Shown: in pieces, positions 2,597-52,828 of the stretch
Numbering within the stretch: position 1 is the stretch's first letter
Layout: each line of letters starts with the position of its first letter
Assembly (NCBI GenBank): GCA_017854795.1
Contig: JAFMHB010000001.1
Span: forward strand, 3,753-67,752
Length of the DNA: 64,000 nt
Direction of reading: 5' to 3'
Source: Candidatus Nanopelagicales bacterium
Lineage (GTDB): Bacteria > Actinomycetota > Actinomycetes > S36-B12
Program-made: the position numbers and the translations under genes
Notes under the pieces: generated by a model
Database searches by the model: none
What the model saw: only the letters and a program-made list of their open reading frames with translations
What the model was told of the DNA's origin: nothing

Positions 2597-2669
2597 TGGC
2601 CCCGGCATGATTCGAACATGCGACGCACGGTTTAGGAAACCGACGCTCTATCCCCTGAGCTACGGGGCC
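2597..2669 (-). tRNA. tRNA-Arg (anticodon CCT)
   Basis: Hand-folded 73-nt cloverleaf: acceptor GGCCCCG/CGGGGCC, D-arm GCTC-AGGGGATA-GAGC, anticodon arm CGGT-TTCCTAA-ACCG (U27-U43 mismatch), T-arm GCATG-TTCGAAT-CATGC, discriminator A. No encoded CCA. Confidence 0.9.
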
Positions 2670-2715
2670 GGGGGGTGCGTGAATAACTTAGTGCATAACC
2701 AAGTGCGTAACCTCG
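2663..2715. repeat. att-like direct repeat, copy 1 (overlaps the first 7 nt of the tRNA-Arg 5' end and its upstream flank)
   Basis: cggggccggggggtgcgtgaataacttagtgcataacc (2663-2700) recurs at 15255-15292 (35/38) and 20711-20747 (about 34/38 with one gap). It is followed by a degenerate second gtgcgtaacc. Confidence 0.8.
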
Positions 2716-2889
2716 TGTGGATAGTGGCGGTTGGTTCTTTCTGGAACATTTGTGTGATTGCCGTTCAATAGTGAGTCGAGTTTGCGGGAATTAGGTGAGA
2801 TGCGGCCCGTTAATAGCCACGATCAGGGCAAATAAGCGTTTTTGAGCATTCTGATGATTTGAGATGTTCGACGGTGAAGGTTTTATTGC

Positions 2890-4452
2890 TTAGCCAGCGG
2901 CTGAGTCGGGGATTTGTTTTCGCCTTAGTTGCTGGTAAACGAGGTTGTGTCCTATTAAGTAGCCGAAGACCCAGGCTTCTTTTGATTCCAATGACCAGCG
3001 TTGGAGTCGTTTAAAGGGAAGCATGTCATCGATGATGGAGTGCATGGCTTCAGCTGTTTGACGTAAGCCGTATATTTCCTTGAACTCTTCGCTGTCGGGT
3101 GCGTGTGGTTGTAGGTAACGAAGCATGTTGTCGTAGCCTTCATCACCGGCAATTTCGATCCCGTCCTTGCTCGTGCTCAGGGCGGACTTGCGACCGTTCC
3201 AAGCGACGCGAAGCATGTTGTTGGTTCCTGGAGAACACCAACAGGTGTAAGGGTGTTCCGTGTAGTGGAAGACGCGTCCATTTTTTTGTCGTTTAGGTCT
3301 CTGGTTGTGATGCAGCGGCAGGTAATTGCTATTCCCATTCACATCGGTCACGGCCAAGTGGAGTCGCTTTAAGATCGCAAAGAATCTTTGTTCGTGTCCG
3401 CATTCTGGGGTTGTGGTTCCAATGAATTTTGGTTTGCGGTAGTGACTTGAATCATCCGAAGTCCGGTCCATTGTTGCCCTAGTAGCAAGCACCATTCCTG
3501 CGCCGTTGAGTGTTTCCTGTTCCTTTCTGCCGGCCGCTCGGTCATAGGCAAGCAGGGATGCGGAGGCACCCTGTTCTATGAGGCGCGCTTGGACTTCGAG
3601 GGTGAGTTTGAGTGCGCTGCTTGCCTCGATTTGAGGGGAGGGCGAATTCACGTAGGCGGCACCGAGTGCGATCGTGTCATGTTTGTTAGGCCCTGGGGAC
3701 CAAATAATGGCGAATTTTGTTCCATGTGTGGATTCGCCACCGCCTTCGGAGTGAGTTTGAGCAACACCATCAATGTGCCTCTGCCGGATTTCCCCGGTGT
3801 ACATGTCTACCACTTCATCTTGCGTGTGTGAGGTGGCTGCCTTGAGGGCTGTTCCGTCTCCAATCATCATGTTCTTTGATGAATAAACCGTGTTCCTCTG
3901 GGAGAACCTTTCGTCATCTAATGACAGCATGACTCCCTGTTGTTGTAACAAGTCTGATTGGTTAATGCCTCGCATTTTTAAGCCACGAAACAGTCTGCTG
4001 ATTCTGCTGGCGCTTGGGCTTTTTGGAGCTGCTATCCAATTTGTGATGCGGACTTGGTCATCAGGTGCAACGGTGGGTAGTGCGTCTTGCAGCCTTTGTT
4101 TGATTAAGGGTAAGTAACTATCAAACAACAATGCTCGGGAGATAGCTGACTGAGAAGAAAATGCGTTTTGTAGCGCGTATATCAACGAGAAGAGTTGGCG
4201 TGGGTAAATACCGGGTGAACCACCTTCGGGTCGAGTGCCCATCATGATGTGATCAAGAAGGCGGTAACTGTCAGGATTCGTAAGTATTAAGTTGAATCGA
4301 GCCAAAGGGTCAGTGCGCAGGTTTTTGGAAGGTCCTGTTTTTTGAGAACGCTTGCCTGACTGCAAGGACATACGTGTCACGCGACCATCAGAGAGACGCA
4401 CTTGATCGGATTTTTCGTCGATACGGATGATTGTGATTTCAGTATCGCTCAT
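2890..4452 (-). CDS. IS4-like DDE transposase-like protein (~520 aa)
   Basis: Start moved to ATG 4452 (ATGA overlap with the upstream stop). By-eye DDE layout: 'MIGDGTALK', 'LLAYDRAAGR', then 'YGLRQTAE' = Y-x2-R-x3-E followed by 'GYLIGHNLV'. No terminal IRs found. Confidence 0.5.
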   Translation of the reverse strand: MSDTEITIIRIDEKSDQVRLSDGRVTRMSLQSGKRSQKTGPSKNLRTDPLARFNLILTNPDSYRLLDHIMMGTRPEGGSPGIYPRQLFSLIYALQNAFSSQSAISRALLFDSYLPLIKQRLQDALPTVAPDDQVRITNWIAAPKSPSASRISRLFRGLKMRGINQSDLLQQQGVMLSLDDERFSQRNTVYSSKNMMIGDGTALKAATSHTQDEVVDMYTGEIRQRHIDGVAQTHSEGGGESTHGTKFAIIWSPGPNKHDTIALGAAYVNSPSPQIEASSALKLTLEVQARLIEQGASASLLAYDRAAGRKEQETLNGAGMVLATRATMDRTSDDSSHYRKPKFIGTTTPECGHEQRFFAILKRLHLAVTDVNGNSNYLPLHHNQRPKRQKNGRVFHYTEHPYTCWCSPGTNNMLRVAWNGRKSALSTSKDGIEIAGDEGYDNMLRYLQPHAPDSEEFKEIYGLRQTAEAMHSIIDDMLPFKRLQRWSLESKEAWVFGYLIGHNLVYQQLRRKQIPDSAAG

Positions 4453-5495
4453 GACAAAACCCGGGGTTGGTATAGGGGATTCTTGATTTTCGCGGGATTT
4501 ATCACTCCGCGCCAATCTAGATCAATAGCGCGTGCTGCTGCGTCAAGAGAAGCGGAGCCGAGGAGTTTTGCAACGTCGATGATGCTGGAGCTTTGGTCAA
4601 AAACTGTGACACCGGCCCAACGTTGGAAACTCGCCGGTTTTAGTCCTAGGTCGTTCGAGTAGCCGGAAACATTTAATATTTGCGCGAGTGCCATCGCGGC
4701 CCCTGCTTGGCGCGAGGCTTCTTTACCGTTTCTTTGAATAACAAACCCAATGTCGCTGGATCCACCCGCGCAGGTGAGTGCCGCGTGGCGATGTGAGATG
4801 ACGTCGTACTCCCAATCACCTGCAATTGCGACACGTCTTTGTTTGATGTGTCGACTACCGGGAAGTAAAAGTGAGCCGTCACTTAAGTCAATGTGTTTTA
4901 GTTTTATGTTGCCAATGTCAGCGGTTCCTGCGCCACAGAGGCCAAGAGCAACGGCACTTGCCAGGCGTGTTTCTAGATAACTGAAAGCCACACTCCGGCA
5001 ACGATCAACCTCACATTCGTTTAATGCGCGTCCTTGCCTGCGGATATCTGATCCATCGCGACCCTCATACCTCGGCATGACGGATGTAGCACCGAATGTT
5101 TTTGCTGTTGCATAAAGAGCGCGCACGGCGCAGGAGCGTAAATGTCGAATAGCGATTGCAGGTGTGCCTAAGCGACCACTTCGATCCCGCCCTGCTGCGC
5201 AGAGCCACTGTTCAAATAACTCCAATGCGGAGTCAAGTGTTGTGAAACCTTGAGCATGCGTGAAGTTGATGTATTGCTCTACTAATCCGCGATATCGGTG
5301 AAACGTTTGTTCTGAGAGGTCACCGGAGTTGACATCAGCACTCCACAGTTCCACGACCGTGAGCAGAACTTCACGTGAGTCAAATGATTGTGGATCAGGC
5401 ATGTTTTTGAGCACCTGATGCCTGCCGCGAGCTGAAGGCAACTCCCACAAGGTGAATGCGCACTGTTGAAAACGTGAAAGGGAAACCATGGTCAT
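4449..5495 (-). CDS. tyrosine recombinase (phage-integrase fold)-like protein, possibly catalytically degenerate
   Basis: SAM-like N-domain pattern ('TFHRYRGLVEQYINF', 'IRHLRSCAVRALY'). C-domain layout ('ALGLCGAGTADIGNIKLKHIDLSDGSLLLPG..RRVAI', 'PASFQRWAG', 'LLGSASLD'). Several catalytic positions appear substituted. Confidence 0.55.
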   Translation of the reverse strand: MTMVSLSRFQQCAFTLWELPSARGRHQVLKNMPDPQSFDSREVLLTVVELWSADVNSGDLSEQTFHRYRGLVEQYINFTHAQGFTTLDSALELFEQWLCAAGRDRSGRLGTPAIAIRHLRSCAVRALYATAKTFGATSVMPRYEGRDGSDIRRQGRALNECEVDRCRSVAFSYLETRLASAVALGLCGAGTADIGNIKLKHIDLSDGSLLLPGSRHIKQRRVAIAGDWEYDVISHRHAALTCAGGSSDIGFVIQRNGKEASRQAGAAMALAQILNVSGYSNDLGLKPASFQRWAGVTVFDQSSSIIDVAKLLGSASLDAAARAIDLDWRGVINPAKIKNPLYQPRVLS

Positions 5496-5617
5496 GGCTG
5501 GTTTCCCTTTGATAAGTCATTGATCTCCCTTGTGAGCGCGTCCTTGAACGCGACACACTGGCGCATACATGCGCCACTTGTCAAGGTTTTGGAGCAAATT
5601 GCCCTTAACATGAGGAA

Positions 5618-5923
5618 ATGCCGTCCAGAGTTCGCTCCGCTAGCTCCTTTAAGGACTACGTGGAAACCGGTGAATGGCCTGAAGCTGTACTCAAAAAGGA
5701 AACCCCGATCCAGGTGCATTATGCGCAGGAAATCGCTTGTGCTCTTGCCAATTCCCTCAGGGATTTGGACATAAGCCTGCGTGAAGCCGCAAGGCGAACC
5801 GGTGTTGACAGAGCAACAATCTCCCGAACACTTGAAGGGGAAACCATCGCAGATCTGGCCACTCTGGCGTTGCTCGAACAAGGTCTTCATGCGCGTCTCT
5901 GGCCCCTCTTCTCTCCTCGTTGA
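5618..5923 (+). CDS. XRE-family helix-turn-helix transcriptional regulator
   Basis: HTH_3-like 'ISLREAARRTGVDRATISRTLEGETIADLATLALLEQGL'. Divergent from the recombinase operon. Preferred over the overlapping minus-strand ORF 5492-5938. Confidence 0.7.
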   Translation: MPSRVRSASSFKDYVETGEWPEAVLKKETPIQVHYAQEIACALANSLRDLDISLREAARRTGVDRATISRTLEGETIADLATLALLEQGLHARLWPLFSPR

Positions 5924-5986
5924 CTTTTGTGCCTTCACTCCTCATCTATAACAAGGCGGCCAAGAAGTTTTCCGTCCAACCCGATT

Positions 5987-6009
5987 AAAGGCTTCAAATT
6001 GAAGCCTTT
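5987..6009. repeat. perfect 23-nt palindrome / hairpin (possible terminator or operator)
   Basis: aaaggcttc-aaatt-gaagccttt, 64 nt after the HTH stop and abutting ATG 6010. No clear U-tract. Confidence 0.35.
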
Positions 6010-6423
6010 ATGCTCAGAATCATGGGTTGTGGGGAGTGCGGTGCAATAAGGGGTAGTTACAGCGCAATCTGTGGCACCTGCCAAAAACGAAAAAGACGAA
6101 GCGAGCAACAAAGAAACCGACGCACCGGAGCACCCGACTCGAGGGCTACGGTCCCGCCTGGCGCAATCCAAGGGATTCGCGAAACCCAACTCAAAATTAC
6201 GAGAATGCAGGTCTTCTTCACTAGGTACTCCCAGAACCCTGTCAAACCACTCACTGACCTAACAATCAAACGCATTCTTGCCGATTTGGAAATCAGTAGT
6301 GAGCGCGTCAAGCTATTCCTCACAACCTGCGAAGACCTTTCCGGTCAAGATCGCCCGAGGCCGATTAGGCGATACCGCAGAAGAGCACCTGCGATTGCTT
6401 TGGACATGGACGGGAGCAGCTGA
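6010..6423 (+). CDS. hypothetical zinc-ribbon / basic-tract protein (weakly supported)
   Basis: 'CGEC-x11-CGTC' followed by 'QKRKRRSEQQRNRR'. No other recognisable motif. Competing ORFs exist on both strands. Confidence 0.25.
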   Translation: MLRIMGCGECGAIRGSYSAICGTCQKRKRRSEQQRNRRTGAPDSRATVPPGAIQGIRETQLKITRMQVFFTRYSQNPVKPLTDLTIKRILADLEISSERVKLFLTTCEDLSGQDRPRPIRRYRRRAPAIALDMDGSS

Positions 6424-6557
6424 GTTCCGGGTCAATGACAGACAAGTTTAACTACTGCCCTTTCGTAAGGATTCCTTAAAACGGTCACACGCTGTCGGTA
6501 TTGTGGGAGGTCATCGATCGTTAGCTCGCGGTTTCAAACTGGGGGTCGAATTTCACG

Positions 6558-6926
6558 GTGGCAAGTAAACCAAAGAACCAACAAAGTGTCGGGCTGGAAG
6601 CATCCCTCTGGGCTGCTTGCGATCGTCTACGATCGAACATGGACGCCGCCGAATGTAAGCACGTAGTACTTGGCCTAATCTTCCTCAAAGACGTTCCGGA
6701 TGTATTCGCCCAACGCCAAAATCAACTTGCAATATGTGTAGAGGATCCCAAATCGGATTACTACATGCCCACCGAAGAAGCACGCAAATCAATCCTCAAA
6801 TCCCGGGACGAATACACATCTGAAGGCGTCTTCTGGGTACCTGAAGGACACTGCGGGGACGACTTCAGAAAAGCCGCCAAACAAAGGGAAAGTGGTGCTC
6901 GATGCTCCAGCAGCGGTTCTGCCTAG
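6558..6926 (+). pseudogene. hsdM: type I restriction-modification methylase HsdM, N-terminal fragment only
   Basis: 'LWAACDRLRSNMDAAECKHVVLGLIFLK' and 'DEYTSEGVFWVPEG' match the HsdM_N consensus (LWxxADxLRGxMDAxEYKHVVLGLIFLK ... ENVFWVPxEARW). The ORF ends after ~120 aa and no MTase domain, hsdS or hsdR follows. Confidence 0.8.
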
Positions 6927-7537
6927 GCGACCGATTCGGCCAAATCGCGTCGGAGTGTTGAGTGGCCAAGAGTCGTGACCAGGAAATTCTTGCCAAGTGC
7001 AGTTTTTCGAGACTCACTAATTCGTGCAAGGTTCAGAATCTCGCCAACCCGCATGTGCAGGCGATCCGCGTCTTCGCTTCCGTGCACCAGAATTACTTTG
7101 CCGTCTTGTGCGAGTAACGTGCTAAGGAATCTGAGTTGCGTCGACATGGATTTATCTCCCCCCATGTAATAGAGAACCTCTGACACGATGACGTGGTCCA
7201 CTGAACCTCGTAACCAAGGATGCCGTCGCAGCAGTTCAGTCAGATCAGTATTTTCAACATGGATCTTTGTTTGGTTCCGTGTCTTTGCCCTCGCAATTGA
7301 GCACGCTCTGTGGGAGATATCGATTCCAATAATTATTGACTCTTGAGAGTGGGAAGCAACAGCCAATAAATTATGCCCATCGGCAGAGCCCACCTCAACA
7401 ATGGTGTGAGCACCCACTGGGATCTCATCGAGCAGAGCGACCCGTTTCGCAGCCTCGTATGGACACGACTCATAAGGCCATGGATTTCCGCGGAGGAACC
7501 GCAGATTGAAAAAAGACGTCAGTACTTTCGAGGCCAT
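6923..7537 (-). CDS. class I SAM-dependent methyltransferase (NodS-like)
   Basis: Motif I 'IVEVGSADGHN', 'IIGIDIS', 'VIVSEVLYYMG'. Start set at ATG 7537 ('MASKVLTSF'); the open frame extends to 7726. Confidence 0.7.
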   Translation of the reverse strand: MASKVLTSFFNLRFLRGNPWPYESCPYEAAKRVALLDEIPVGAHTIVEVGSADGHNLLAVASHSQESIIIGIDISHRACSIARAKTRNQTKIHVENTDLTELLRRHPWLRGSVDHVIVSEVLYYMGGDKSMSTQLRFLSTLLAQDGKVILVHGSEDADRLHMRVGEILNLARISESRKTALGKNFLVTTLGHSTLRRDLAESVA

Positions 7538-7791
7538 GCATTTTGGCAGTCCACTTATCAGCCAAAAGCATGCTCTGTGAGCGAACCGTGTGACCGAACA
7601 TTCCCTTCTAGTCGAGCGACTTTGCGGTAAGACTTTCACGTTGCTCCTCATGTTGGACTTCAGACTCATTTCACAAAATGTAGGTTGATTGCCCCAAAGT
7701 TGCTGTCGCAAAAAGTGAAAAATCAAAGATCGTCATGTGATCGTCATATATTCCGGTAAAAATCGGTGGGGAGTGCAACGACCATGTAGTC

Positions 7792-8490
7792 ATGGCGATT
7801 TCTACCCAAACTTCCACACCGACTCAAGGGAATTCCACTCTTCATGCTGTTCGCCAAATGAAGTATTCGGACCTCGCCAACGTCGTCGCGTGGCACTCAC
7901 AATCATTTTCCTCAGCTTTCTACTCCCAATTAGGTCACGGATTTCTGCGCCATTGGTTTACTTCGCACATGAACGCACCTGAATCAGTTTCGCTCACGGT
8001 GTCTGATTCTTCGGGGCATCTGGTGGGGTATCTCATTGGGACAACGGATCAATCAGCGGCGAGTGGAGTTTCCTGGCAAACCGGATACATCACGGGCCTG
8101 CGTGGAGCCTGTGCGTTGCTGGCTCGACCCAGAATGTGGGTTTCATTCCTACGTGTGCGCGTTCGTCCCTACGCTGGCAAAACCATTCGTCTAATTTTGC
8201 GACCACGAAAAGGCAAAGTGCTTTCAAGTGGCGATGGCCAGTTAATGTACATATGCATGGCGCCAAGCCACCGGTGTCGTGGCGCAGGTAGCGTGTTGCT
8301 GGAAGCCTTTGTGGGGGAGGCCCGAAGGAGTGACGCTACTCGACTCACATTGGTTACCGAAACTGAAAATGTCTCGGCACAACGTTTCTACCTTCGGCAC
8401 GGATGGACTATGAATTCAAGTCCAGCCCAGGCCATGGACGGTAGACCCCTCACGCGAATGGAACTCAACCTTGGGGAGGATGCAATTTGA
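7792..8490 (+). CDS. GNAT family N-acetyltransferase
   Basis: Acetyl-CoA motif A 'MAPSHRCRGAGSVLLEAFVGEARR', 'RFYLRHGW'. 4-nt overlap with the next gene. Confidence 0.75.
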   Translation: MAISTQTSTPTQGNSTLHAVRQMKYSDLANVVAWHSQSFSSAFYSQLGHGFLRHWFTSHMNAPESVSLTVSDSSGHLVGYLIGTTDQSAASGVSWQTGYITGLRGACALLARPRMWVSFLRVRVRPYAGKTIRLILRPRKGKVLSSGDGQLMYICMAPSHRCRGAGSVLLEAFVGEARRSDATRLTLVTETENVSAQRFYLRHGWTMNSSPAQAMDGRPLTRMELNLGEDAI

Positions 8491-9269
8491 TGGGTAGTCG
8501 ATATCGCTTGTTGATCCCAGTAATTATCGTTGCGGTCACACTAGGTATTGCTGGTTGGATTCAGTACTCCGTGTCTAACCAACCAGAGGCTAACGCCCAG
8601 CCCGTATCTGCCGCCCCCGTCACAACCACCCCCGAAGTTCAACCGACACCGGGGACACGGGTCAGCGTGCGTTCAGGGAGCGCGCCAAAAATCTCACGCA
8701 TTCCCGCTGAGCAGTGGCAGGAAATCGTAGCCACAGGCACTTGGAGACCAGGTTGCCCAGTTGGCCGCAAGCAACTCAGGTTGCTTGAAATCGGATATTT
8801 TGATTTCGCAGGCAAAGAGCAACGTGGAAAGATCGTTGGACATCGCGATAGTGTAGAAGATTTAGCAGAGATATTTTCTCAAATGTATCTGGACCGATTC
8901 CCAATTGCGAGAATGGAACCGGTCGAGATGTACGGTGGAGATGTTGCTCGAAGTCTCAAAGCAAATAACACTTCAGCGTTTAATTGCCGTAAACCGGGGC
9001 AAATCAATGCACCAGTTCTCGAATCCCCACATGCCAACGGCAGGGCAATTGATATCAATCCAGTACAAAACCCATGGCGTGATCCTCGGTGTGAGTGTTG
9101 GGTTCCCAAAGCGAAGTATGCAAAAGACAAGCAAGGGCCGGGTGTAATCCGTAAGGGAAGTCCTGTGATTCAACTTTTCAAGGAGAGAGGGTGGGTCTGG
9201 CAGAACATTAAGGTGCCCGATTACATGCACTTTGACACCGGTTACCCTTCTAAGGGACGATCCGGATAG
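8487..9269 (+). CDS. membrane-anchored M15 (VanY-like) D,D-peptidase
   Basis: N-terminal TM 'LLIPVIIVAVTLGIAGW'. Zn motif 'SPHANGRAID' = SxHxxGxAxD. Distal 'DYMHFD'. Confidence 0.7.
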   Translation: MMGSRYRLLIPVIIVAVTLGIAGWIQYSVSNQPEANAQPVSAAPVTTTPEVQPTPGTRVSVRSGSAPKISRIPAEQWQEIVATGTWRPGCPVGRKQLRLLEIGYFDFAGKEQRGKIVGHRDSVEDLAEIFSQMYLDRFPIARMEPVEMYGGDVARSLKANNTSAFNCRKPGQINAPVLESPHANGRAIDINPVQNPWRDPRCECWVPKAKYAKDKQGPGVIRKGSPVIQLFKERGWVWQNIKVPDYMHFDTGYPSKGRSG

Positions 9270-9368
9270 ATTTCTATCGCCCCTACATTTAATGGGTCGC
9301 GTGCAAACACTCAGTGACCGACTGCGACCGCCAGACCCGCTTGTATGGTTTCAATAAGGGAGGCCCTC

Positions 9369-10070
9369 ATGTCATTAGGCCGCGCATTAGTAGTTGATGA
9401 TGAAAAACCCCTTGCCCGAATTGTCGGGAGCTATCTTGAACGCGAAGGTTTTGAAGTTTTCGTAACATACGATGGCGAAAGTGCAATTGAACTCGCAAAA
9501 AATGAACGCCCGCACCTTATAGTTTTGGACATCATGCTTCCTGGCTTGGATGGAATTGAAGTGTGTAAGAAGTTAAGGGAATTCACAGATGCTTACATTC
9601 TGATGCTGACAGCTCGAGACGATCCTGCAGACAAAGTCATCGCACTCTCAACTGGTGCAGATGACTACCTGGTCAAGCCCTTCTCCTCAAAAGAGTTGGT
9701 CGCAAGAGCTCATGCCATGCTTCGTCGGCCTCGCGGCCCTCGTGGGCTGCACGCACCAGCTTGGGAGCGCCTCACAACGGGGGAACTCGTCTTGGATGCT
9801 CACGCCCGTCGCGCCGAACTAGATGGGCGCGTGATTCAAATGACCCGCACCGAATATGACATTCTGGAATTACTTGTTCGAGCCGATGGCGCTGTCGTGA
9901 CTCGCGAAGAAATCATCGCGGCTATTCGCGGAGGCGATTGGTTTGGAGATCCGCAAATGATTGACGCACACGTGGCTCGATTGCGCGGAAAATTACATGA
10001 CCCAGCTCGCGATTCGCGCTTCATATTGACTGTTCGAGGAGTTGGCTACCAATGGGGAGGAGACCATTGA
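9369..10070 (+). CDS. OmpR-family response regulator
   Basis: Start at ATG 9369 behind RBS aagggagg. Receiver 'ALVVDDE..LDIMLPGLDG'. Winged-helix C-terminus 'LTRTEYDILELL...TVRGVGYQW'. Confidence 0.85.
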   Translation: MSLGRALVVDDEKPLARIVGSYLEREGFEVFVTYDGESAIELAKNERPHLIVLDIMLPGLDGIEVCKKLREFTDAYILMLTARDDPADKVIALSTGADDYLVKPFSSKELVARAHAMLRRPRGPRGLHAPAWERLTTGELVLDAHARRAELDGRVIQMTRTEYDILELLVRADGAVVTREEIIAAIRGGDWFGDPQMIDAHVARLRGKLHDPARDSRFILTVRGVGYQWGGDH

Positions 10071-11887: not shown

Positions 11888-11893
11888 GGGAAA

Positions 11894-12653: not shown

Positions 12654-12730
12654 CGTGGACCTAATAATGGGGTCCTTTCAGCTGGTGCCACTCTATTGCA
12701 TCATGGCATAACTGATGTCACAATCCACCT

Positions 12731-13141
12731 ATGATGAAGAGGTCACCCATGGGATCGAGGCGGTCCACCCGTCTGGGCATCGTGGTGGCAGTCGTCATCG
12801 GAATTATTGGCATGCATCACATAGTGGTCGTCATGTGTTCCACTCCGGCCGACATGGCAAGCATAGATGTTGTAGAGAGTCATGCTCATGCCCCACACGT
12901 CAGTCAAGAAGCACCCGAAGTGTTCCAGGGGACCGCGGCCCAAACTCCCGCGGATTCTGATCTTCATCCAAGCCTGGTTCATTTATGTCTGGTCATTGCC
13001 ATGGGACTGGCACTATTTATGCCGACAATTAAGGCTCGTCACCTACCATGGAATAGGCGTGAGTTGAATATAGGTCGCGGTCAGCTTTTCGACCTGCGAG
13101 CACCACCGCAAAAGGATCTCCTCTGTATTAGTCGAACATAA
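12731..13141 (+). CDS. small His-rich membrane protein (hypothetical)
   Basis: TM 'LGIVVAVVIGIIGMHHIVVV', 'ESHAHAPH', second TM 'LVHLCLVIAMGLALFM'. Sits directly upstream of the DUF305 gene. Confidence 0.4.
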   Translation: MMKRSPMGSRRSTRLGIVVAVVIGIIGMHHIVVVMCSTPADMASIDVVESHAHAPHVSQEAPEVFQGTAAQTPADSDLHPSLVHLCLVIAMGLALFMPTIKARHLPWNRRELNIGRGQLFDLRAPPQKDLLCISRT

Positions 13142-13207
13142 AAGGAACGGTCACCACGTTTCTCGAGGCTTTCATGCCTCACATTCAACTATTTACAGGA
13201 GATTTTT

Positions 13208-14569
13208 ATGTCTATATTTCGTTCAGCAGCACACAAAATTTCAACAAAGTCACTTCTCATTTCAGTGGCGTGCACCATCACGATGCTTACAGCCCTCACT
13301 ATGACCGGATGTTCATCGCAGGACTCAACCGCGAAGACTCCTGCTCAGGTTGCAGGGCAGGTGTCTGAAGAAACATTTTCCGCTTTAGACTTCATGTTTG
13401 TCCAAATGATGATTCCTCACCACGATCAAGCAGTACAAATGGCCAGCCTGGCCACCAGTCGAGCACTCAACCCGCAGATCAAAGATCTCGCAAATCAAAT
13501 TTCTGCCGCTCAAAAATCAGAGATTCAGGTGATGGAATCATGGTTGATGTCAATGGGCGTCACACAAATGCCTGAGCTCGATTCACTAGGCGCCCATGCA
13601 GGGCATATGGACGGCGTGCTTACAGAATCCCAGATGGAGACATTACGTCAGGCAAGTGGTCGAGAATTTGACCAACTCTTCGGAGAATTCATGATTGAAC
13701 ATCATTTGGGCGCAATTTCCATGGCCCAAGATGTTTTGAAACAAGGAACAAGTCAAGGAGACCCCGCAGTCAAAGCTCTCGCGCAGTCAATAATTGGCGA
13801 TCAGGAAAAGGAAATTGTCCTGCTGAAGTCCATGATTAGAGCGAGTGAAAAACCAGCTCGTACCGCAATTTCGCCGGCGCTAAGTCACGTCCACGATGCA
13901 GTCGTCAGCGGCGATTCAATATATATCGGTACCCACAGCGGGATACATCGAGTTGATATCCCAACTGGCAGTTCTGAACTAATCGGCGATTCCAAGGATG
14001 ACTTTATGTCGCTTGCAGGTCAGCCCGAAAAAGTACTGGTTGCCAGCGGCCACCCAGGAGTTGGTTCTTCATTATCAAACCCCATTGGGCTGGTCAAAAG
14101 CGCGAACCAAGGATTGACTTGGGAGAGCATTAGTTTAGAGGGCGACGTTGATTTCCATGCACTAGCGATTAATGAAAATCAAATTGTGGGCTGGGACACT
14201 AGGGGACCCTTGCTTTGGTCACAGGACGGTGGCCAAAGCTGGACAGATGGGCCATCGGTGCAAGCCATGTCAATAGTCTGGTTTCAAGACACAGTCTGGA
14301 TCACAACCCCGGACCAAGGTCTACTCAAATGGAACCCTGGCGACATGACCACTGTTTCAGTTGGCCTGCCTGCAGTTTTGCTTTCCACGTCGCCGAAGGG
14401 CGATGCAATCTGGAGGGTTGACGCAGATGGCAGCGTGCATCGAAGTCTCGACATTCAATCCTGGACACAAGCAGGTTCTTTGAAAGAAATTGAAGCACTT
14501 GCTGCCGAATTCGACCATGCATTCGCGGTCACTCCGCAATCATTTCAACGGCTATCGCTGGACAACTAA
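13208..14569 (+). CDS. lipoprotein: DUF305 (four-helix, His-rich) domain fused to a BNR/Ycf48-like beta-propeller
   Basis: Lipobox 'LTMTGC'. Two DUF305 half-motifs, 'MMIPHHDQAVQMA' and 'FMIEHHLGAISMA'. C-terminal BNR-type motifs 'SANQGLTW' and 'SQDGGQSW'. RBS aggag 7 nt upstream. Confidence 0.75.
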   Translation: MSIFRSAAHKISTKSLLISVACTITMLTALTMTGCSSQDSTAKTPAQVAGQVSEETFSALDFMFVQMMIPHHDQAVQMASLATSRALNPQIKDLANQISAAQKSEIQVMESWLMSMGVTQMPELDSLGAHAGHMDGVLTESQMETLRQASGREFDQLFGEFMIEHHLGAISMAQDVLKQGTSQGDPAVKALAQSIIGDQEKEIVLLKSMIRASEKPARTAISPALSHVHDAVVSGDSIYIGTHSGIHRVDIPTGSSELIGDSKDDFMSLAGQPEKVLVASGHPGVGSSLSNPIGLVKSANQGLTWESISLEGDVDFHALAINENQIVGWDTRGPLLWSQDGGQSWTDGPSVQAMSIVWFQDTVWITTPDQGLLKWNPGDMTTVSVGLPAVLLSTSPKGDAIWRVDADGSVHRSLDIQSWTQAGSLKEIEALAAEFDHAFAVTPQSFQRLSLDN

Positions 14570-14649
14570 ACTCGAGTTACCTTCAAACATAAGAGCCGTC
14601 GTCATAAGAGCCGCTGTGCATTATCTGGATGGCATCACCCCTTACGGTA

Positions 14650-14965
14650 GTTCCCCATAATTTGAGAGCCTGAGTTCGCCTTGTGTGGTGGGAAGACTCG
14701 GTTGTTATGGCAAGTAGGAAAAATCATTCTCCTGAGGACATTGTCCGGTTGTTGCAGCGTCATAATGAATTGCTGGGAAAAGAACTTACCGTCGAGTTGG
14801 TGTGCCGTGAGGTGGGTATTTCAAGTCCAACGTATTGCACGTGGCGGCAGCGTTATGTCGGAATGAGTGGTGATGACGGGCAAGGAACTCAAAGAGCTAC
14901 GTGCCCAGAAAACAAAGTTGAAACGGCTCGTTGTGTTAACGCTCATCCAAAATTAGGCCATTTTT
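14650..14965 (+). mobile_element. truncated IS3-family remnant (left end plus frameshifted orfA only)
   Basis: The left end ttccccataatttgagagcc and the 5'UTR are homologous to 11561-11617. OrfA 'MASRKNHSPEDIVRLLQRHNELLGKELTVEL..PTYCTWRQRY' then loses frame. No orfB or right IR. Confidence 0.7.
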
Positions 14966-15156
14966 GATCAGGTGGTTTCAAGCGGTCGTCGCAACTTTGC
15001 TAGATCGTCAACAGTTGAGAGAAACGCCTCGAAATTCATTAGTGACAGGACATGGAATTTAGTTCTCGATTCAAATGACGCGATTGGCGACGTTTAAAGG
15101 CCAAAACTCTTGTCGACTGCGTGTTTTGGCTAGTTTTCACCGCAGATTGATAACCG

Positions 15157-15308
15157 AGTTTTCATTATCGCCCGAATAATTTTCATTTTGGAATGTTGAT
15201 GGGGGAGAAACCGCACTGGATTTCCCTCACAAAAAGGGGTTATGCACAAGCCCCCGGGGCCTGGGGGTGTGTGAAGAACTTAGTGCATAACCTTGTGCAT
15301 CTCCAAAG
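15157..15308. repeat. att-like direct repeat, copy 2 (~140-bp arm plus 38-nt core)
   Basis: Core 15255-15292 matches 2663-2700 at 35/38. The ~100 nt to its left is homologous to 20614-20710. IR ggttatgcac (15238-15247) / gtgcataacc (15283-15292). Confidence 0.8.
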
Positions 15309-15805
15309 TTGAGTTGCGCTGGGTGGCCTGATCCCTTTCCGAAACGCAAATATGCCTTCTGTGACAGCGTGGCCTGTTCGGAATCGACAGCAATTACGTT
15401 TACGTCCAGTGCATGAAGGAATGCGTCGAACGCGCCTGGTCGACGCGAATCCGGGCGACCATCTGCTCGTCGTCACCCATTCACCCACGGCTGCGATCGC
15501 TCAGGCGACCTTCAAGGGTGAGCGCGGCCATCCGGTGCGCATCTCGCGTGAGCTGTGGGACGAGGCCATCGATGTCGCACGCGGTGATGAGGGAGTAACG
15601 CGGCTGATTCGTGGACGAGACGACGTCGCCGGGGGCGACGACATTGACGTGCTCTGACGTCACCCGCGCTCAATGATCGCAAGGAGATCAACTACCTGAC
15701 GCGCTCTCCAGTGAGCGCTCCGCGGATTGTCGGCCACTCGCTGTCATGGAGCAACGGGAGGCCGCTGAGGATGACCCTTGATCGGTCAGCAGGCAGCTCT
15801 ATTGG

Positions 15806-17590
15806 TCACCTCCGGGGTGCGACCTTCACCTTGATGTAGGACACCTCGCCAGTCGTCGGATCAGTGATCGTGAACGTGTACGTCCCCTTGCGAGTGAGCG
15901 TCATGACCGGCAGCTGCGCCAGCCCGTCAGCATCAGCCACCGTCGCCCCCACGGACACATACCCATCAGACGTCTTTACCTGCACCGAGTAGACAACTCC
16001 CGACGTCAGACCCGAGGCGGCCAGCGACACCGGGGTGCCGACCGTGGCCGGCACCTTCGGTGCACGCCCGATCCTTGGCCCAGGAGCCTTGTTCATCTTT
16101 CGTGTCGGAGTCGCGGCGGCCACCTTCTCTCCCACCAGCACCACACCCGGCGTCACAACCTTGGGCGTCACCGGATTGTTCGGCACCCCCACGACCACCG
16201 GAACCTCAGACGAATCAGCACTGTCCATTGCATCCGTTCCTGCATCATCGGCCGTCGTCTGCGCCACGACAGGTGTCACCGCCGGTGTCGTCTCACCACT
16301 GCTATTCGAGTCCGGCGTCGGAGTGGGCGCCGGAGTGGGCGCCGGAGCAGGAGTGGGCCATGCGTACACGCGTACAACTCCGTTATAGGTGTACGCACCA
16401 CTTGTCGCATAAGGGATACCCATCGCCACGGTCTCCCCGTCAGCAGACAATGCAACCGACCATCCGGCATAATCACCCTTCGCACGAGTCAGATCAGTCC
16501 CCACCTGCGTCCACGAACTGGCCACGAGCTCAAAGACCTGCACCTGCCCGGCATATGCATTGACCCCGATCGCGCCGATCGCAAGTGTTGTCCCGTTGGC
16601 AGACATTGCGATCGAATAGCCGAAGGCAGCACCCGTTGCGCCATCGATGTTGGCACCCAGTTGTGTCCACGAGCCCGACACCAGTTGAAAGACCTGCACC
16701 TGCCCGGCATATGCATTGACCCCGTCAGCGCCCACCGCCACGATCGTTCCATCCTTAGACAGCGCCACGGACCGGCCGAAACTGCCGTTTGCAGCAGCAG
16801 TTATGTCAGTGCCCACCTGCGTCCACGAACTGGCCACGAGCTCAAAGATCTGAACGCGGTTGAGGTTTACACCACTTGATGGAACTCCCACAGCCATGAC
16901 CGTCCCGTCGGAGGACAACGCCACTGAGGTACCTAGAAAGTCATCGGTCTTGGCGCCATCGATGTTGGCACCCACCGGCGTCCACGAACTGCCCACCAGC
17001 TTAAAGGCCCGAACTTGCCCCACCCTCGTATCGGGCGAGCGGTCCTTATTTGGAGCGCCGACGGCAAGCGTCGTCCCGTCCGCAGACAACGCCAACGAGG
17101 CGCCGAACTGATCCTTGTCGGCCAGGCCGGTGATATCCGCTCCTAGTTGCGTCCACTTATCCGACCCAAACTGGAACACCCGGACCAGTCCAGGCTTAAG
17201 CTGTCCGGACTGTGATGCGCCCACAGCCATGATCGTCCCGTCGGCAGACAACGCCACTGAAGAGCCGAACTTGTCTTTGGTGGCTGTGCCATTGATGGGG
17301 TCGCCCAATTGCGTCCAAGCCCCGGACACGTAGCCATAGGCACGGACCTGACCAGCGCCCCCTCCGGCGGCTATTGCGCCCACAGCCATGATCGTCCCGT
17401 CGGCAGACAACGCCACCTTGTCTCCGAACTCGTCGTAGTCGCCCCCACCGGCCACTTCAGAGGCCAATTGAGTCCAGTCATCCACCGACGCCGCGTGCAC
17501 AGGGCCATTGACAGCCCCGGCACCAAACGCGACCACCATGGCCGCACAAACACCGATTGTGATCGTCTTTGCCCTGCGTAAGAAATCCAT
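15806..17590 (-). CDS. secreted FG-GAP-like 7-bladed beta-propeller protein with Pro/Thr linker and C-terminal Ig-like domain
   Basis: Signal peptide 'AAMVVAFGAGAVNGPVHAAS'. Seven repeats of 'FGxSVALSADGT(I/T)xAVGA'. Linker 'PTPAPAPTPAPTPTPD'. Confidence 0.75.
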   Translation of the reverse strand: MDFLRRAKTITIGVCAAMVVAFGAGAVNGPVHAASVDDWTQLASEVAGGGDYDEFGDKVALSADGTIMAVGAIAAGGGAGQVRAYGYVSGAWTQLGDPINGTATKDKFGSSVALSADGTIMAVGASQSGQLKPGLVRVFQFGSDKWTQLGADITGLADKDQFGASLALSADGTTLAVGAPNKDRSPDTRVGQVRAFKLVGSSWTPVGANIDGAKTDDFLGTSVALSSDGTVMAVGVPSSGVNLNRVQIFELVASSWTQVGTDITAAANGSFGRSVALSKDGTIVAVGADGVNAYAGQVQVFQLVSGSWTQLGANIDGATGAAFGYSIAMSANGTTLAIGAIGVNAYAGQVQVFELVASSWTQVGTDLTRAKGDYAGWSVALSADGETVAMGIPYATSGAYTYNGVVRVYAWPTPAPAPTPAPTPTPDSNSSGETTPAVTPVVAQTTADDAGTDAMDSADSSEVPVVVGVPNNPVTPKVVTPGVVLVGEKVAAATPTRKMNKAPGPRIGRAPKVPATVGTPVSLAASGLTSGVVYSVQVKTSDGYVSVGATVADADGLAQLPVMTLTRKGTYTFTITDPTTGEVSYIKVKVAPRR

Positions 17591-17638
17591 GGATCAGAAA
17601 CTAGTCGTCCATTTAGACGCCTTCACGTCAAAGTGGGG

Positions 17639-18319
17639 CTACCTTGACGTCGGCTCCGCAGTGCCGGGTCGACCGGCCCATTCAATGAACATCCGCGCGG
17701 CCGTCACTCGCATGTTGACTGCCGGATCAGTCTCGAGGCCCAATGCAACGAAGATGCGGTTCAGGATGTGCTCAACGGCTCCGACTGTCGAACCACGACG
17801 CTCCGCGATCTCTGCGTTGCTCAGCCCCATGGCCACCATCCGCAGGACCTGCACCTGGGTGGGAGTCAAGGACGACAGTCCATTGGAGGTGGACTCAGCA
17901 CCTGCAGCGGAATTCTTGTCGTGTGAATCGCTAAGGACGGTCTCTAGAGCCTGAAGGACTACGGCAGCATCGTTCACGTCCGACTTGCGCAGGTAGAGGG
18001 CGCGCTCGAACCACCTCTTGCGGTAGTCCGAGGTGATCTCGTAGTTGGAGAGGATTACTACTCCGAGGTAGGGCGCCTCCTTCGTCAGCGAAACGATGAG
18101 GTCGAGACCACTGACACCGCTGCCCAAATCAATGTCACAGAGGATTGCATCTGGATCGAACCGAGGAAACTCCTGCACCGCAGTGCTGGCACCGGCGACA
18201 GCTATCACGTCAAAGCCGGCGGCCGTGAGCATGTCTTTCAGCATGGCACGGATGAGCCCCTCGTCCTCCACCACCAGGACGCGGCGGGGCGGCACCGTGA
18301 CTTTACTCAACGACGTCAT
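17639..18319 (-). CDS. NarL/LuxR-family response regulator
   Basis: Start set at ATG 18319 ('MTSLSKVTVPPRRVLVVEDE'). Receiver Asp in 'ILCDIDL'. HTH 'LTPTQVQVLRMVAMGLSNAEIAERRGSTVGAVEHILNRI'. Confidence 0.8.
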   Translation of the reverse strand: MTSLSKVTVPPRRVLVVEDEGLIRAMLKDMLTAAGFDVIAVAGASTAVQEFPRFDPDAILCDIDLGSGVSGLDLIVSLTKEAPYLGVVILSNYEITSDYRKRWFERALYLRKSDVNDAAVVLQALETVLSDSHDKNSAAGAESTSNGLSSLTPTQVQVLRMVAMGLSNAEIAERRGSTVGAVEHILNRIFVALGLETDPAVNMRVTAARMFIEWAGRPGTAEPTSR

Positions 18320-20093
18320 TGTTACGCCCCCCTGTCGTCGCCAGCAATGTTCGGAGCACCGTACCGGCCTCGGAGTCCCGTCGAGTCCACTCCAGACATG
18401 TGTCATCGAGAAGTCTCGTCCCGGCGCCGGGGGGCCCTTGGCCCATCAGGCCATCCCCGTCGTCCGCCACGACGATGACGAGGTAGGGGCCTTGAACGGA
18501 TAGATTCACATCGACCCGATCCGCGGCCCCAGCACGAACGGCATTGACGATACCCTCGCGGACGATCTCCACAGCAGCCAGTGCCAGAGAGGGATCGCGC
18601 TCGAGCGCTTCGGATGCCTCGTGCGCCACCTCCACACGTAGATCGATGGAGAAGCCCCAGACATCACCCATGTCTTGTAGTGACGTGCGCCAGTCGGCTG
18701 GGTTGGTCTCACGAAGTCGAACGCGGATTCGTTCACCTAGGTCGCGGAGAAGCACCTCCTGATCGCACTGTGGATCATTCACGATGCGGAGAGCAGCTGC
18801 CACCAGTTCCGACTGCACTGCTCCATGCACGCGCACGCCGAGGCTTTGCCGCTCGAACCATGCTTGGAGATTGAGTTCCGCCGTGAGTTGGCCCACGGCT
18901 TTCAGGGTGGCCTGCAGCTGCTCCTCCGCATTGCGCCACTGCCGAGCCCCAGCGAGTGCGACTGGCGGGCCCACAATCCAGACTAGAACGAACAGAGCTG
19001 ACCGAAGGGTCGAACCGAGACCGACCGCCTGCGTCACTTCATCAGGCACACGCGACGCGATCAGAGCCGTGGAGGTGACAGCCGCTGCAGAGGCTGCGAT
19101 CACCCAGGCGGCCACAATCAGGGTCGATGCCGCACGCGGATGCTGCGACCACGTATCTGGGACGTAGATGCGATCTGCCAGTCCCAGAATGGCCCAACTG
19201 ATGGCCGCCATCGTTATTCCCGCTAGAACACCATTCACGATGCCGAACTGGTTTCTTGCCGTCAGGCTGATCCAGACGAGGATCAAGGTCGCTGACATCG
19301 CAGGTGAGAAAGGGCAGTCCCGCAAGACCGCCCACAAGCCGCCGAACGTCGATCGGACGGCACCCATCGCATCGGTCCTGTCGATCACGAGGGTCACCGA
19401 TCCCGGCGTCATCAACTCACGCCCCAGCGGCCGCACGACAGACTCTGCCAGTCGGGACAGTTTCTGCGACGTGACTGCATCCGACGTGCCTCGCGTGTCG
19501 GCGATGATGGTCGCCAACTCGACCTCGACTGTGTCCTGCACACTGGACAGGAGCTCATCTCGATAGGCATCAATGGCAGTCAGAGTCTCCCTGCCGAGGG
19601 CCCTTTCACGCGCCAGTTCGTCCTGCAGGTGCTGCTGCGCGTCGCGGTGTCTGCGATATCCGTCGACGACCAAAGCCGCCATGGCCAGCAGTGCGGCGCT
19701 GGCCAGCGTTGTGGTGGCAATTCGGTCGACCCAGCCATCCACGGGAAGTCCCCACCACGCATTGCCGAACTGGACAACCGACGCACGGATGGCACTCGCC
19801 AGGACGAACGTGGCAACAGCAAGCACGGGTCTGGGCTGCCGATCACCGGGTCTCAGATACGTCAACCAGGCCAACCACAGGACAAGGCCCAAGGCCAACT
19901 GTCCCACGATCCTGATCAGGAACCAGGTTGCCACGGCAGAGGGAACGTGGTTCGAGCTTGAGATCGCCTCGATATCCGCCGTCGTTGGCAGCAGAGCGAA
20001 GGCGAACATGAGCAGCCACGCTGGAAGCGAAACGGCGTTGGGGCCACCCACGCGCCACCACGGTACGCGCAGCGCTCCTGCCCTTAGCACCAT
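18303..20093 (-). CDS. multi-TM sensor histidine kinase, paralogue of 447-2210
   Basis: Same layout as 447-2210: TM block, coiled segment, TM block, 'RVHGAVQSEL' H-box-like, 'VREGIVNAVRAG', 'VVADDGDG'. Confidence 0.7.
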   Translation of the reverse strand: MVLRAGALRVPWWRVGGPNAVSLPAWLLMFAFALLPTTADIEAISSSNHVPSAVATWFLIRIVGQLALGLVLWLAWLTYLRPGDRQPRPVLAVATFVLASAIRASVVQFGNAWWGLPVDGWVDRIATTTLASAALLAMAALVVDGYRRHRDAQQHLQDELARERALGRETLTAIDAYRDELLSSVQDTVEVELATIIADTRGTSDAVTSQKLSRLAESVVRPLGRELMTPGSVTLVIDRTDAMGAVRSTFGGLWAVLRDCPFSPAMSATLILVWISLTARNQFGIVNGVLAGITMAAISWAILGLADRIYVPDTWSQHPRAASTLIVAAWVIAASAAAVTSTALIASRVPDEVTQAVGLGSTLRSALFVLVWIVGPPVALAGARQWRNAEEQLQATLKAVGQLTAELNLQAWFERQSLGVRVHGAVQSELVAAALRIVNDPQCDQEVLLRDLGERIRVRLRETNPADWRTSLQDMGDVWGFSIDLRVEVAHEASEALERDPSLALAAVEIVREGIVNAVRAGAADRVDVNLSVQGPYLVIVVADDGDGLMGQGPPGAGTRLLDDTCLEWTRRDSEAGTVLRTLLATTGGRNNDVVE

Positions 20094-20416
20094 GCGAGGC
20101 TAGCCGCTACCTGCGATCCCGTCCAGTTACCGTGCACGTGACCGGCGCGACCGCCGAGCAGCATCACGCCGACGACGGCCATCATGATCGTACCCATCCC
20201 CACACCCACCATGGCCTGGTGCGTCGCGAAGGGCTCTCGCTCCCGGCACAGCGGCACGGTCAGCGCGAGGAGAAGTAGGACGGGGAGAGCGAAGCCATGG
20301 CGAGCCGATGGGGTGCCGGTGCTTTCTGCGATTTCGGCACCCACGACTCTCGCTGTTGATCTCGTCTGTACGACAGATCTCACCCTTGCCGGGTTCGTGC
20401 GCAACTCTGGTTTCAC
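20084..20416 (-). CDS. possible small 2-TM membrane protein upstream of the kinase (weak)
   Basis: Hydrophobic stretches 'FALPVLLLLALTVPL' and 'MVGVGMGTIMMAVVGVMLLGG'. 10-nt overlap with the HK start. High-GC DNA makes spurious ORFs likely. Confidence 0.25.
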   Translation of the reverse strand: MKPELRTNPARVRSVVQTRSTARVVGAEIAESTGTPSARHGFALPVLLLLALTVPLCREREPFATHQAMVGVGMGTIMMAVVGVMLLGGRAGHVHGNWTGSQVAASLAWC

Positions 20417-20613
20417 TCTCTACAGCGGTGCGCATCGGGTCAACCTGAACGACTCTTAGCAATCGATGGTCGCAGTCCACTTGTGACTGCTAGTGCTCTC
20501 GTGGGTCCAGTGTTTCCTTTCACTACTGGAGTTCGAGTCAACTTGACGCGACCAACGCGTGGTACCGGGATTTCACTGGTGGCGGCGCGTGTGTGCTGCG
20601 AGAGCGTTCATAC

Positions 20614-20763
20614 AGTTTTCATATTTGGGCAAGAAATTTTCACATTGGACAGTTGATGGGCAAAATGGCGTTTCGAATTCCCCCACAAAAAGGGGTTATG
20701 CACACACCCCCGGGGCCGAGGGTGTGTGAAGAACTTAGTGCATAACCGAATGCTCAACTCCAG
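20614..20763. repeat. att-like direct repeat, copy 3 (~140-bp arm plus core)
   Basis: Core 20711-20747. IR ggttatgcac (20694-20703) / gtgcataacc (20738-20747). Inner 9-bp IR cacacaccc (20701-20709) / gggtgtgtg (20720-20728). Confidence 0.8.
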
Positions 20764-20819
20764 GTGCATTGCAAGCGAGATTTCCTGATCGGGGTGTTGG
20801 AGGTGAGGCCTGCGGCATT

Positions 20820-52827: not shown

Positions 52828-52828
52828 T

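Follow-up and report, generated by a model that had tools for sequence, protein, structure and literature searches.

Cargo-bearing elements in tandem at the 5' end of tRNA-Arg(CCT) in a Candidatus Nanopelagicales bacterium, with a putative DDE transposase and a recombinase-fold partner

The stretch of DNA considered here, 64,000 nucleotides (nt) from a Candidatus Nanopelagicales bacterium (assembly GCA_017854795.1, contig JAFMHB010000001.1, positions 3,753–67,752 of the forward strand; hereafter the window, numbered from its first letter), carries one called tRNA gene, tRNA-Arg(CCT), adjoined by two elements in tandem, E1 and E2. An earlier note on this DNA, made from the sequence alone, had described three direct copies of a 38-nt repeat as attachment sites of two integrative elements accreted at one tRNA. 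The analysis reported here suggests a different origin for these boundaries: E1 and E2 probably belong to a tandem array of transposons inserted, always in the same orientation, at the first 6 bp of the tRNA gene, with a putative DDE-type transposase and a partner protein that has the fold of a tyrosine recombinase and lacks its catalytic residues.

The tRNA-Arg(CCT) locus and the ends of the elements

The boundaries of the locus are as follows; tRNA genes were called with ARAGORN and Rfam.

2596–2669, minus strand: tRNA-Arg(CCT) (ARAGORN; Rfam, 61.7 bits)
2670–15255, plus strand: E1, 12.6 kb, 51% GC, containing the mobility module and cargo
2670–2715, plus strand: left end of E1 (left inverted repeat), one variable nt followed by GGGGGTGCGTGAATAACTTAGTGCATAACCAAGTGCGTAACC
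15157–15255, plus strand: right end of E1 (right inverted repeat), with TTTTCAT repeats at 15159–15170 and 15180–15191 (21 nt apart), then CCCTCACAAAAAGGGG, then the terminal GGTTATGCACAAGCCCCC
15256–15261, plus strand: hexamer GGGGCC between E1 and E2, its second copy
15262–20711, plus strand: E2, 5.45 kb, 61.5% GC
15262 to about 15300, plus strand: left end of E2
about 20613–20711, plus strand: right end of E2, with TTTTCA repeats at 20616 and 20637
20712–20717, plus strand: third copy of GGGGCC, to the right of E2
20718–20765, plus strand: solitary sequence resembling a left end, the third at this locus, GAGGGTGTGTGAAGAACTTAGTGCATAACC..., with decay of the outermost repeat

The repeats are real. 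The 38-mer at 2663–2700 recurs in direct orientation at 15255–15292 with three mismatches (0 of 100 dinucleotide shuffles gave any match) and a third time at 20711–20747 with one gap; it begins inside the 5' acceptor strand of the tRNA, with a 7-nt overlap, and the 64-kb window has exactly three occurrences of a 20-nt sub-core, GAANAACTTAGTGCATAACC. The earlier note was also right that the repeat represents the 5' end of the tRNA and the DNA upstream of it, not the 3' part, and that the block between copies 2 and 3 is raised in GC (61.5%, versus 51% in E1, 49.5% to the left of the tRNA and 55% to the right); GC and gene content shift exactly at the repeat copies, and the native upstream region of the tRNA has been displaced. 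The 38 nt can, however, be decomposed into GGGGCC, a tRNA-derived sequence of 6–7 nt present at every junction, and about 31 nt of conserved element left end. The hexamer corresponds to nt 1–6 of tRNA-Arg(CCT) (window 2664–2669, GGGGCC on the plus strand), and is both the target and the duplicated sequence. The claim of two mobile elements in tandem, oriented alike and bordering the tRNA on its 5' side, stands, whereas that of a single 38-nt att core does not, since only GGGGCC is derived from the tRNA, and the latter term should be replaced by a hexamer duplication flanked by conserved transposon ends. The proposed layout, attL–E1–hybrid att–E2–attR, seems not to apply either: no active integrase is present, and copy 3 precedes a third left end rather than a plain chromosomal attR arm. 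Two features had been overlooked, namely that copies 2 and 3 share a further 90–110 nt on their left side, and that both internal junctions form an imperfect palindrome centred on GGGGCC.

The two ends of the elements are different. The left end (about 45 nt), read on the tRNA strand, contains three direct repeats of 12–13 nt, GGTTAYGCACnn, whereas the right end (about 100 nt) contains one inverted copy of the GGTTAYGCAC motif and two TTTTCAY repeats; the arm common to copies 2 and 3 consists of two TTTTCAY repeats 21 nt apart, the CCCTCACAAAAAGGGG block and GGTTATGCACACACCCCC. This arm was also considered as a decayed copy of the tRNA, a proposal that was rejected because the alignment gave only scattered identity. 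Relatives of the locus, designated below by L numbers, were compared as metagenome or metagenome-assembled genome (MAG) contigs throughout. All 12 of the 12 distinct junctions in the window and these relatives follow a single rule: the tRNA (...GAGCTAC) or a right end (...GCACACACCCCC) is followed by GGGGCC, by 0–1 variable nt and by a left end, which after the variable nt reads GGGGGTGTGTG(A/C)A(A/G)AAC.... The terminal inverted repeat, about 17 bp long (GGGGGTGTGTGCAWAAC), matches at 15/17 positions in E2 and in the L002 element, at about 12/17 in E1, at 17/18 in L022 and at 15/18 in L037. Where a right end abuts a left end, the internal junction is therefore a palindrome with a 6-bp spacer. 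One GGGGCC lies on each side of E1, E2 and the L002 element, and GCGGG(T) on each side of the L037 element; the duplication is 6–7 nt long, and up to 10 nt in L037, the exact value being blurred by runs of G and C.

A TAAGTT sequence in the left end of E1, 15 nt upstream of the tRNA +1 position, is a possible –10 element of an outward promoter for the tRNA, and the left end of L037 contains the motif TTGGCA-16-TAATCT. No partner right end for the third left end was found up to 64 kb; this sequence may be what is left of an earlier element, or else the ancestral upstream region of the tRNA. The end repeats also contain TTATGCACA (2691–2712, 15238–15247 and 20694–20703), which fits the enterobacterial DnaA-box consensus TTATNCACA. 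The outside end of Tn5 also contains a DnaA box, and the motif in the present ends could conceivably be a host-factor site. To the right of copy 3, upstream of an amidohydrolase gene, a 14-nt sequence is perfectly duplicated in tandem (20823–20850, GGTGGAAATTCGAA twice).

The two-gene module and its association with tRNA 5' ends

No Pfam integrase was found in the first 24 kb of the window (1–24 kb), and no tested window protein matched PF00589. The three genes of interest lie at the tRNA-proximal end of E1.

2890–4515, minus strand: putative DDE transposase, open reading frame (ORF) of 541 amino acids (aa); 520 aa according to gene callers, with the start at 4452
4449–5495, minus strand: 348-aa protein of tyrosine-recombinase fold, its stop overlapping the start of the DDE candidate (translational coupling)
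5618–5923, plus strand: XRE-type helix-turn-helix (HTH) gene, divergent from the gene for the 348-aa protein

The 3' end of the DDE-candidate gene faces the tRNA, at a distance of 220 nt. Searches of Pfam, NCBIfam, PHROGs and PDB sequences, with the single sequence and with a profile, placed the 541-aa protein in no family, apart from a weak match of its C-terminus alone to PF13751 that remained below threshold (E = 0.0078). It has 146 relatives among 1.8 billion representative proteins, and none of 10 distant relatives tested contained a Pfam domain. In an alignment of 30 sequences, with identities down to 16%, the only invariant columns are D220 (in a GDG motif), D249, D325 (YDRA), G394 and E489 (R-x3-E). 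The AlphaFold (AF2) model has a mean confidence (pLDDT) of 63 and displays an RNase-H-like order of strands and helices, in which a beta-rich insertion domain separates the second D from the E; fold comparison with Foldseek yielded weak matches only, the best being Mos1 (E = 0.02, probability 0.91), Hermes, Sleeping Beauty, RNase H and Argonaute PIWI. We infer from the alignment and the model that D220, D325 and E489 form a DDE triad and that the protein is a divergent DDE transposase of the IS4/IS1182 clan.

The 348-aa protein has a predicted tyrosine-recombinase fold. A profile of 18 relatives matches XerA (5hxy) with E = 7.7e-6, and the AF2 model (pLDDT 83.6) matches XerA, Cre, IntI, lambda Int, XerH and the Tn1549 Int with a Foldseek probability of 1.0. 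Where XerA has Arg-I, the two catalytic residues of H-x-x-R, the second His and the nucleophilic Tyr, the protein has G, A, Q, T and A/I, respectively; no catalytic column is conserved among the 18 relatives, and the same loss is seen in the more distant branch found at tRNA-Gly. The protein is thus predicted to have a recombinase fold without the catalytic chemistry, and, given that these residues are replaced throughout a family diverged to 24% identity, a long-term non-catalytic role is suggested. A 148-aa ORF on the minus strand (5492–5938) had been considered as the third gene of an operon resembling the IS66 trio; it was rejected as a shadow of the XRE HTH gene, since its own frame is rich in Cys and Arg and poorly conserved and the conserved product is the HTH protein encoded on the opposite strand.

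In eight lineages, 160–220 nt separate the module either from the 5' end of a tRNA (Arg-CCT or Gly-CCC) or from a neighbouring element's right end. The 3' end of the DDE gene lies 215–220 nt from tRNA-Arg(CCT) in the window, in L027 (GCA_038908335.1), in L029 and in a clade with 48% identity represented by L028, in which the tRNA is partial and at a contig end; L011 is also among the loci at which the module is linked to tRNA-Arg(CCT). No other recombinase was found within 10 kb in L027, L028 or L029. The cargo of module-bearing elements is mostly related to defence (type I restriction-modification (R-M), GmrSD, DUF499/DUF1156/SNF2). In L021 and L022, the module adjoins the right end of another element rather than a tRNA; these two loci have an identical recombinase-like protein and module, and diverge into different neighbours at the terminus of the left inverted repeat. 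The spacer between their abutted inverted repeats is reverse-complemented in one relative to the other (L021 4790–4850, C6 G4 CC T G5; L022 4540–4640, C5 T GG C4 G5), which could mean that the template was switched at the palindrome or that one insertion occurred in the opposite orientation.

A far branch (L035, L036 and L037) lies 160–195 nt upstream of tRNA-Gly(CCC). Its DDE protein is 20% identical and its recombinase-like protein 24% identical to those of the window (hhalign probability 99.8), and three short direct repeats again precede the tRNA. L037 represents a clean single insertion, with GCGGG(T), nt 1–6 of tRNA-Gly, at both ends and about 6–10 nt duplicated; the duplication is short in this lineage, because the far flank does not resemble the left end. 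At the other end of the same tRNA, its last 14 nt, CCCGTCACCCGCTC, are repeated about 100 nt downstream (L037 7528–7541 and 7643–7656), in what looks like the scar of a classical 3'-end integrative element at a tRNA that also bears a 5'-end transposon. These comparisons show that module, ends and tRNA target vary together over deep divergence, and that the ends are common to elements with and without the module. A phage or plasmid origin was also considered and rejected, as no viral contig matched and the only plasmid match, to genes annotated as hypothetical, was from Streptomyces.

The site in relatives and the cargo of the elements

The 20-nt sub-core was used as the query in a locus scan of 185,579 reference genomes (596 Gb), metagenomes and viral contigs. 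The reference genomes contained five loci, all of them true homologues in Nanopelagicales-type MAGs and all at the same tRNA-linked site; the nine metagenome matches comprised five real tRNA-linked loci and four chance 20-mers without flanking similarity, and viral contigs gave no real core match. The core is, thus, not a generic repetitive extragenic palindrome (REP) or miniature inverted-repeat transposable element (MITE), as real matches are confined to the tRNA-linked site or its arrays. One of the loci (L001, CAMCYV010000053.1) comes from a contig labelled Bifidobacterium breve MAG. Over the 1.1 kb aligned, its identity to L013, a freshwater metagenome contig, is about 98%, and it has this tRNA site in common with the Nanopelagicales MAGs; L001 is probably mis-binned or a contaminant.

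The relatives do not all share the three copies with syntenic content; they carry a single copy or other cargo. A single copy is present in L001, L012 and L013, which read tRNA, GGGGCC, a left-end-like sequence (X), DUF6364/PIN, redoxin and Gly_transporter, the last of these proteins being 85% identical in the L001/L013 type to that encoded at window 22892–23545. In L001 and L013 the Gly_transporter homologue directly adjoins a homologue of window 52313–53145, and the window therefore holds about 29 kb more; this additional segment (23546–52313) consists of metabolic genes (ABC sugar transporter, dehydrogenases, MmgE/PrpD, GntR), with no mobility genes seen. In the MAG EUL_228, the two sides of the site lie on contigs joined by binning alone: the L005 contig, with a left flank of 85% identity, reads tRNA, GGGGCC and left end and stops exactly at the core, and L003 reads AmiS/formamidase cargo, right end, GGGGCC, X, DUF6364 and PIN, with a right flank 93–94% identical to L013. 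L002 is a two-copy array around a 2.2-kb element with the same ends and one ALTTAQ-repeat gene. L004/L018 and L011 have the left end of the window at 93% identity, but with other cargo or another chromosomal flank. In L004 (6036–6110, the same as in L018), this left end (93%) is accompanied by short patches of the last ~60 nt of the DDE gene, and glyoxalase and OpuA cargo replaces the module; the element looks like a deletion derivative that has become non-autonomous. Contig ends are frequent at the repeat (L005, L008, L011 and L012).

The genes between copies 1 and 2 agree with the earlier description (recombinase/transposase-like genes, an R-M remnant, IS3 debris and metal cargo). Beyond the module, E1 comprises an HsdM_N remnant (6558–6926), a methyltransferase, a GNAT protein, an M15 peptidase, a two-component system (OmpR/HisKA pair), debris of IS3 (rve and HTH_Tnp_1), and the DUF6153 and DUF305 genes. 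The HsdM_N fragment is a relic of a defence system of the kind carried by other module-bearing elements. Two 110-nt segments that are 75% identical (11598–11707 and 14687–14796) correspond to fragments of two IS3-type orfA genes (HTH_Tnp_1) bracketing the DUF6153 and DUF305 genes, and the bracketed segment may be a decayed composite transposon.

E2 contains no mobility genes. As its ends are of the E1 type, it is probably a non-autonomous cargo element. Its cargo includes a 101-aa ORF and another small ORF, in addition to the following genes.

15806–17590, minus strand: FG-GAP/Kelch repeat protein
17639–18406, minus strand: LuxR-type response regulator
18303–20093, minus strand: histidine-kinase-like protein of 596 aa

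The FG-GAP/Kelch gene contains repeats with a period of 156–162 nt (16412–17476; four families, D1–D4), which encode protein repeats and are not related to att sites. The kinase-like protein and the LuxR-type regulator are distant homologues of a chromosomal pair beyond the tRNA (kinase-like genes at 447–2210 and 18303–20093, 24% identity over the full length).

Mechanism, rival explanations and relation to known systems

Tandem, site-specific and orientation-specific insertion at nt 1–6 of the tRNA is well supported. That this reflects a tandem array of site- and orientation-specific DDE transposons at the first 6 bp of tRNA-Arg(CCT), working with a dead recombinase partner, is given a probability of about 0.58. 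The only mobility genes encode a DDE-type protein and a recombinase-fold protein without catalytic residues, and the anatomy is, thus, that of a site-specific transposon with non-autonomous derivatives; we infer that catalysis by the DDE protein is aided by the dead recombinase. In such a mechanism, the DDE enzyme would cleave at the inverted repeats and join the ends to the target with a 6-bp stagger, and the dead recombinase would act as a sequence-specific DNA binder, recognizing either the palindrome of abutted ends, which resembles dif or lox, or the 5' target in the tRNA, and would thereby choose site and orientation. E1 would represent the autonomous type, with an XRE-type regulator, a recombinase-derived protein and a DDE transposase, and E2 and the other small elements would be mobilized in trans. 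Each newest insertion would lie beside the tRNA, with older elements pushed outward. Since insertion cuts the tRNA off from its previous upstream DNA, the left end would need an outward promoter, and this promoter would now be driving the tRNA.

Several observations weigh against this proposal. The assignment of the DDE protein is weak on every database score (E = 0.0078 for the C-terminus in Pfam, E = 0.02 in Foldseek, no PDB sequence match). A 6-bp spacer between inverted repeats is equally the anatomy of the core site of a tyrosine recombinase, and the end repeats resemble arm-type sites. A scan of the left end in the window for the sigma-70 consensus yielded no promoter match. A single-copy site exists in relatives, but no empty site was found within the species, for which five assemblies all show E1–E2, and neither a circular junction nor an excision scar was detected. 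No naive tRNA-Arg site was observed: every such site seen, including the 'empty' ones, adjoins left-end-like sequence. Finally, a copy of the gene pair (318 aa and 524 aa) on the linear plasmid pI of Streptomyces mirabilis (L038, NZ_CP074103.1, 65097–67620) has no adjacent tRNA, so not every member of the wider family is at a tRNA; the annotation calls both genes hypothetical, and their neighbour is a recombinase trio of Tn554 type.

The main rival is conservative site-specific recombination of integrative islands by a tyrosine or serine recombinase, either the 348-aa protein acting through a non-canonical active site or an enzyme encoded elsewhere, with the DDE protein as a passenger or in some other role. 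GGGGCC would then be the overlap region, the inverted repeats the core-type sites, and TTTTCAY and GGTTAYGCAC the arm-type sites. The junction palindrome with its 6-bp spacer does resemble dif, lox and attP cores, the 21-nt spacing of the direct repeats in the right end is typical of arm sites, and the module encodes a recombinase-fold protein, one family member of which has a precomputed PF00589 match; in addition, the identity of single-copy sites to the left end extends over 31 to ~150 nt, as in attP sites that restore a tRNA. The sequence anatomy fits either mechanism; the conservative one nevertheless seems less likely, because Arg-I, H-x-x-R, the second His/Trp and the Tyr are all replaced across the family (down to 24% identity), no other integrase is present at module-bearing loci, the translationally coupled DDE-like partner has an invariant acidic triad, and just ~6–10 nt are duplicated in L037.

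Homologous recombination might also maintain a flexible island at this site, with repeats of ~40–250 nt that are copies of the tRNA promoter serving as anchors for cassette swaps and with no dedicated recombinase. Freshwater Nanopelagicales are known for flexible genomic islands, and left-end-like sequence at all tRNA-Arg sites, the ~150-nt duplicated stretch in L002 and the frequent breaks of contigs at this point (L005, L008, L011, L012) speak in its favour. This reading is nonetheless improbable, as it accounts neither for the precise GGGGCC at all junctions, the terminal inverted repeats and the conserved right end, nor for the constant position of the module, nor for the recurrence of this architecture at tRNA-Gly, where the end sequences are unrelated. 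A generic REP/MITE or regulatory palindrome occurring here three times by chance and delimiting nothing is hardly credible: the internal copies are indeed imperfect palindromes with a GC-rich stem, but there are only three copies in 64 kb, the real matches in the genome and metagenome collections are all at the tRNA-linked site or its arrays, with none in viral contigs, and GC and gene content change exactly at the copies.

The array, read as one of DDE transposons, shares features with several known systems. In nearly all mobile elements homing to tRNA genes, an active tyrosine integrase is at work and the 3' end is the target. As in islands of tyrosine integrases, arrays of cis-mobilizable and integrative and conjugative elements (ICEs) and Islander-type elements, several elements lie in one orientation at one tRNA, with short boundary repeats and strain-variable cargo, and elements lacking a recombinase are presumably moved in trans; here, by contrast, the site is nt 1–6 at the 5' end of the tRNA, just 6–7 nt are tRNA-derived, there are terminal inverted repeats, and no catalytically competent integrase is encoded. 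In Tn7-like elements (attTn7; tRNA-homing CRISPR-associated transposons and others), as is proposed here, an enzyme of the DDE type works with a separate DNA-binding protein that selects one conserved chromosomal site; orientation specificity, asymmetric ends with several internal repeats, and defence and metabolic cargo are shared as well. They differ in that the present module has two genes and inserts into the 5' end of a tRNA rather than downstream of a gene; no Pfam or NCBIfam match to TnsA, TnsB (rve), TnsC (AAA+) or TniQ was found in the module, the only rve of E1 being IS3 debris (11940–12653). The existence of tandem arrays further indicates an apparent lack of target immunity, unlike in Tn7-like elements.

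The resemblance to the IS4/IS1182 clan (e.g., Tn5/IS50) lies in the C-terminal signature R-x3-E ... K/R ... N-L, the weak PF13751 match, the beta-rich insertion domain of the model, and the combination of inverted repeats with a short duplication; the differences are that no Pfam or NCBIfam threshold is reached, the recombinase-fold partner is obligatory, there is a single target site, and the elements are 2–13 kb long and carry cargo. ICEs of the TnGBS type use a DDE transposase (Mutator-like), insert just upstream of sigma-A promoters and carry conjugation genes. They are DDE-driven, as is proposed for the present elements, and prefer DNA immediately upstream of a transcription unit, but their transposase belongs to an unrelated family, and the elements described here have no conjugation genes and a target inside the tRNA's 5' end, such that the native promoter is displaced. 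Integron arrays are similar in that mostly promoterless cargo units each end in a conserved imperfect palindrome, the newest being nearest to a fixed platform; here, however, there is no IntI, attI or attC with R''/R' GTTRRRY cores, the ends are inverted repeats, and the catalytic residues have been lost. SE elements, for their part, use active R-H-R-Y recombinases (PMC9345347).

The general kind of element is known, as both site-specific DDE transposons and tandem tRNA islands have precedents. Four features appear to be new: a module of two proteins, a target at the tRNA 5' end, what looks like exaptation of a recombinase, and arrays of non-autonomous cargo elements. Searches of the literature brought up neither a module of DDE and inactive recombinase nor transposons of bacteria inserted at tRNA 5' ends, and the gene pair is hypothetical in RefSeq and unnamed by Pfam, NCBIfam and PHROG models. 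It is tentatively proposed, at slightly less than even odds, that the elements constitute an undescribed transposon superfamily, in which an unclassified DDE transposase is steered by an exapted dead tyrosine recombinase to the first 6 bp of tRNA Arg-CCT or Gly-CCC, with an element-borne tRNA promoter and integron-like arrays of autonomous and non-autonomous (defence and metabolic) elements in streamlined freshwater Actinobacteria.

If the dead recombinase does act as the target selector of the DDE enzyme, the module would represent a new solution to programmable-site transposition, comparable to TnsD/TniQ or CRISPR guidance in Tn7-like elements, and would plainly exemplify the exaptation of a recombinase for DNA binding as a subunit. 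As the tRNA would rely on a promoter borne by the element, such an element would be hard to lose, and gene flow at the site may be integron-like, given that cargo units of 2–5 kb without mobility genes share the same ends. For one 'additive' flexible genomic island of abundant freshwater Actinobacteria, the locus also points to the underlying mechanism.

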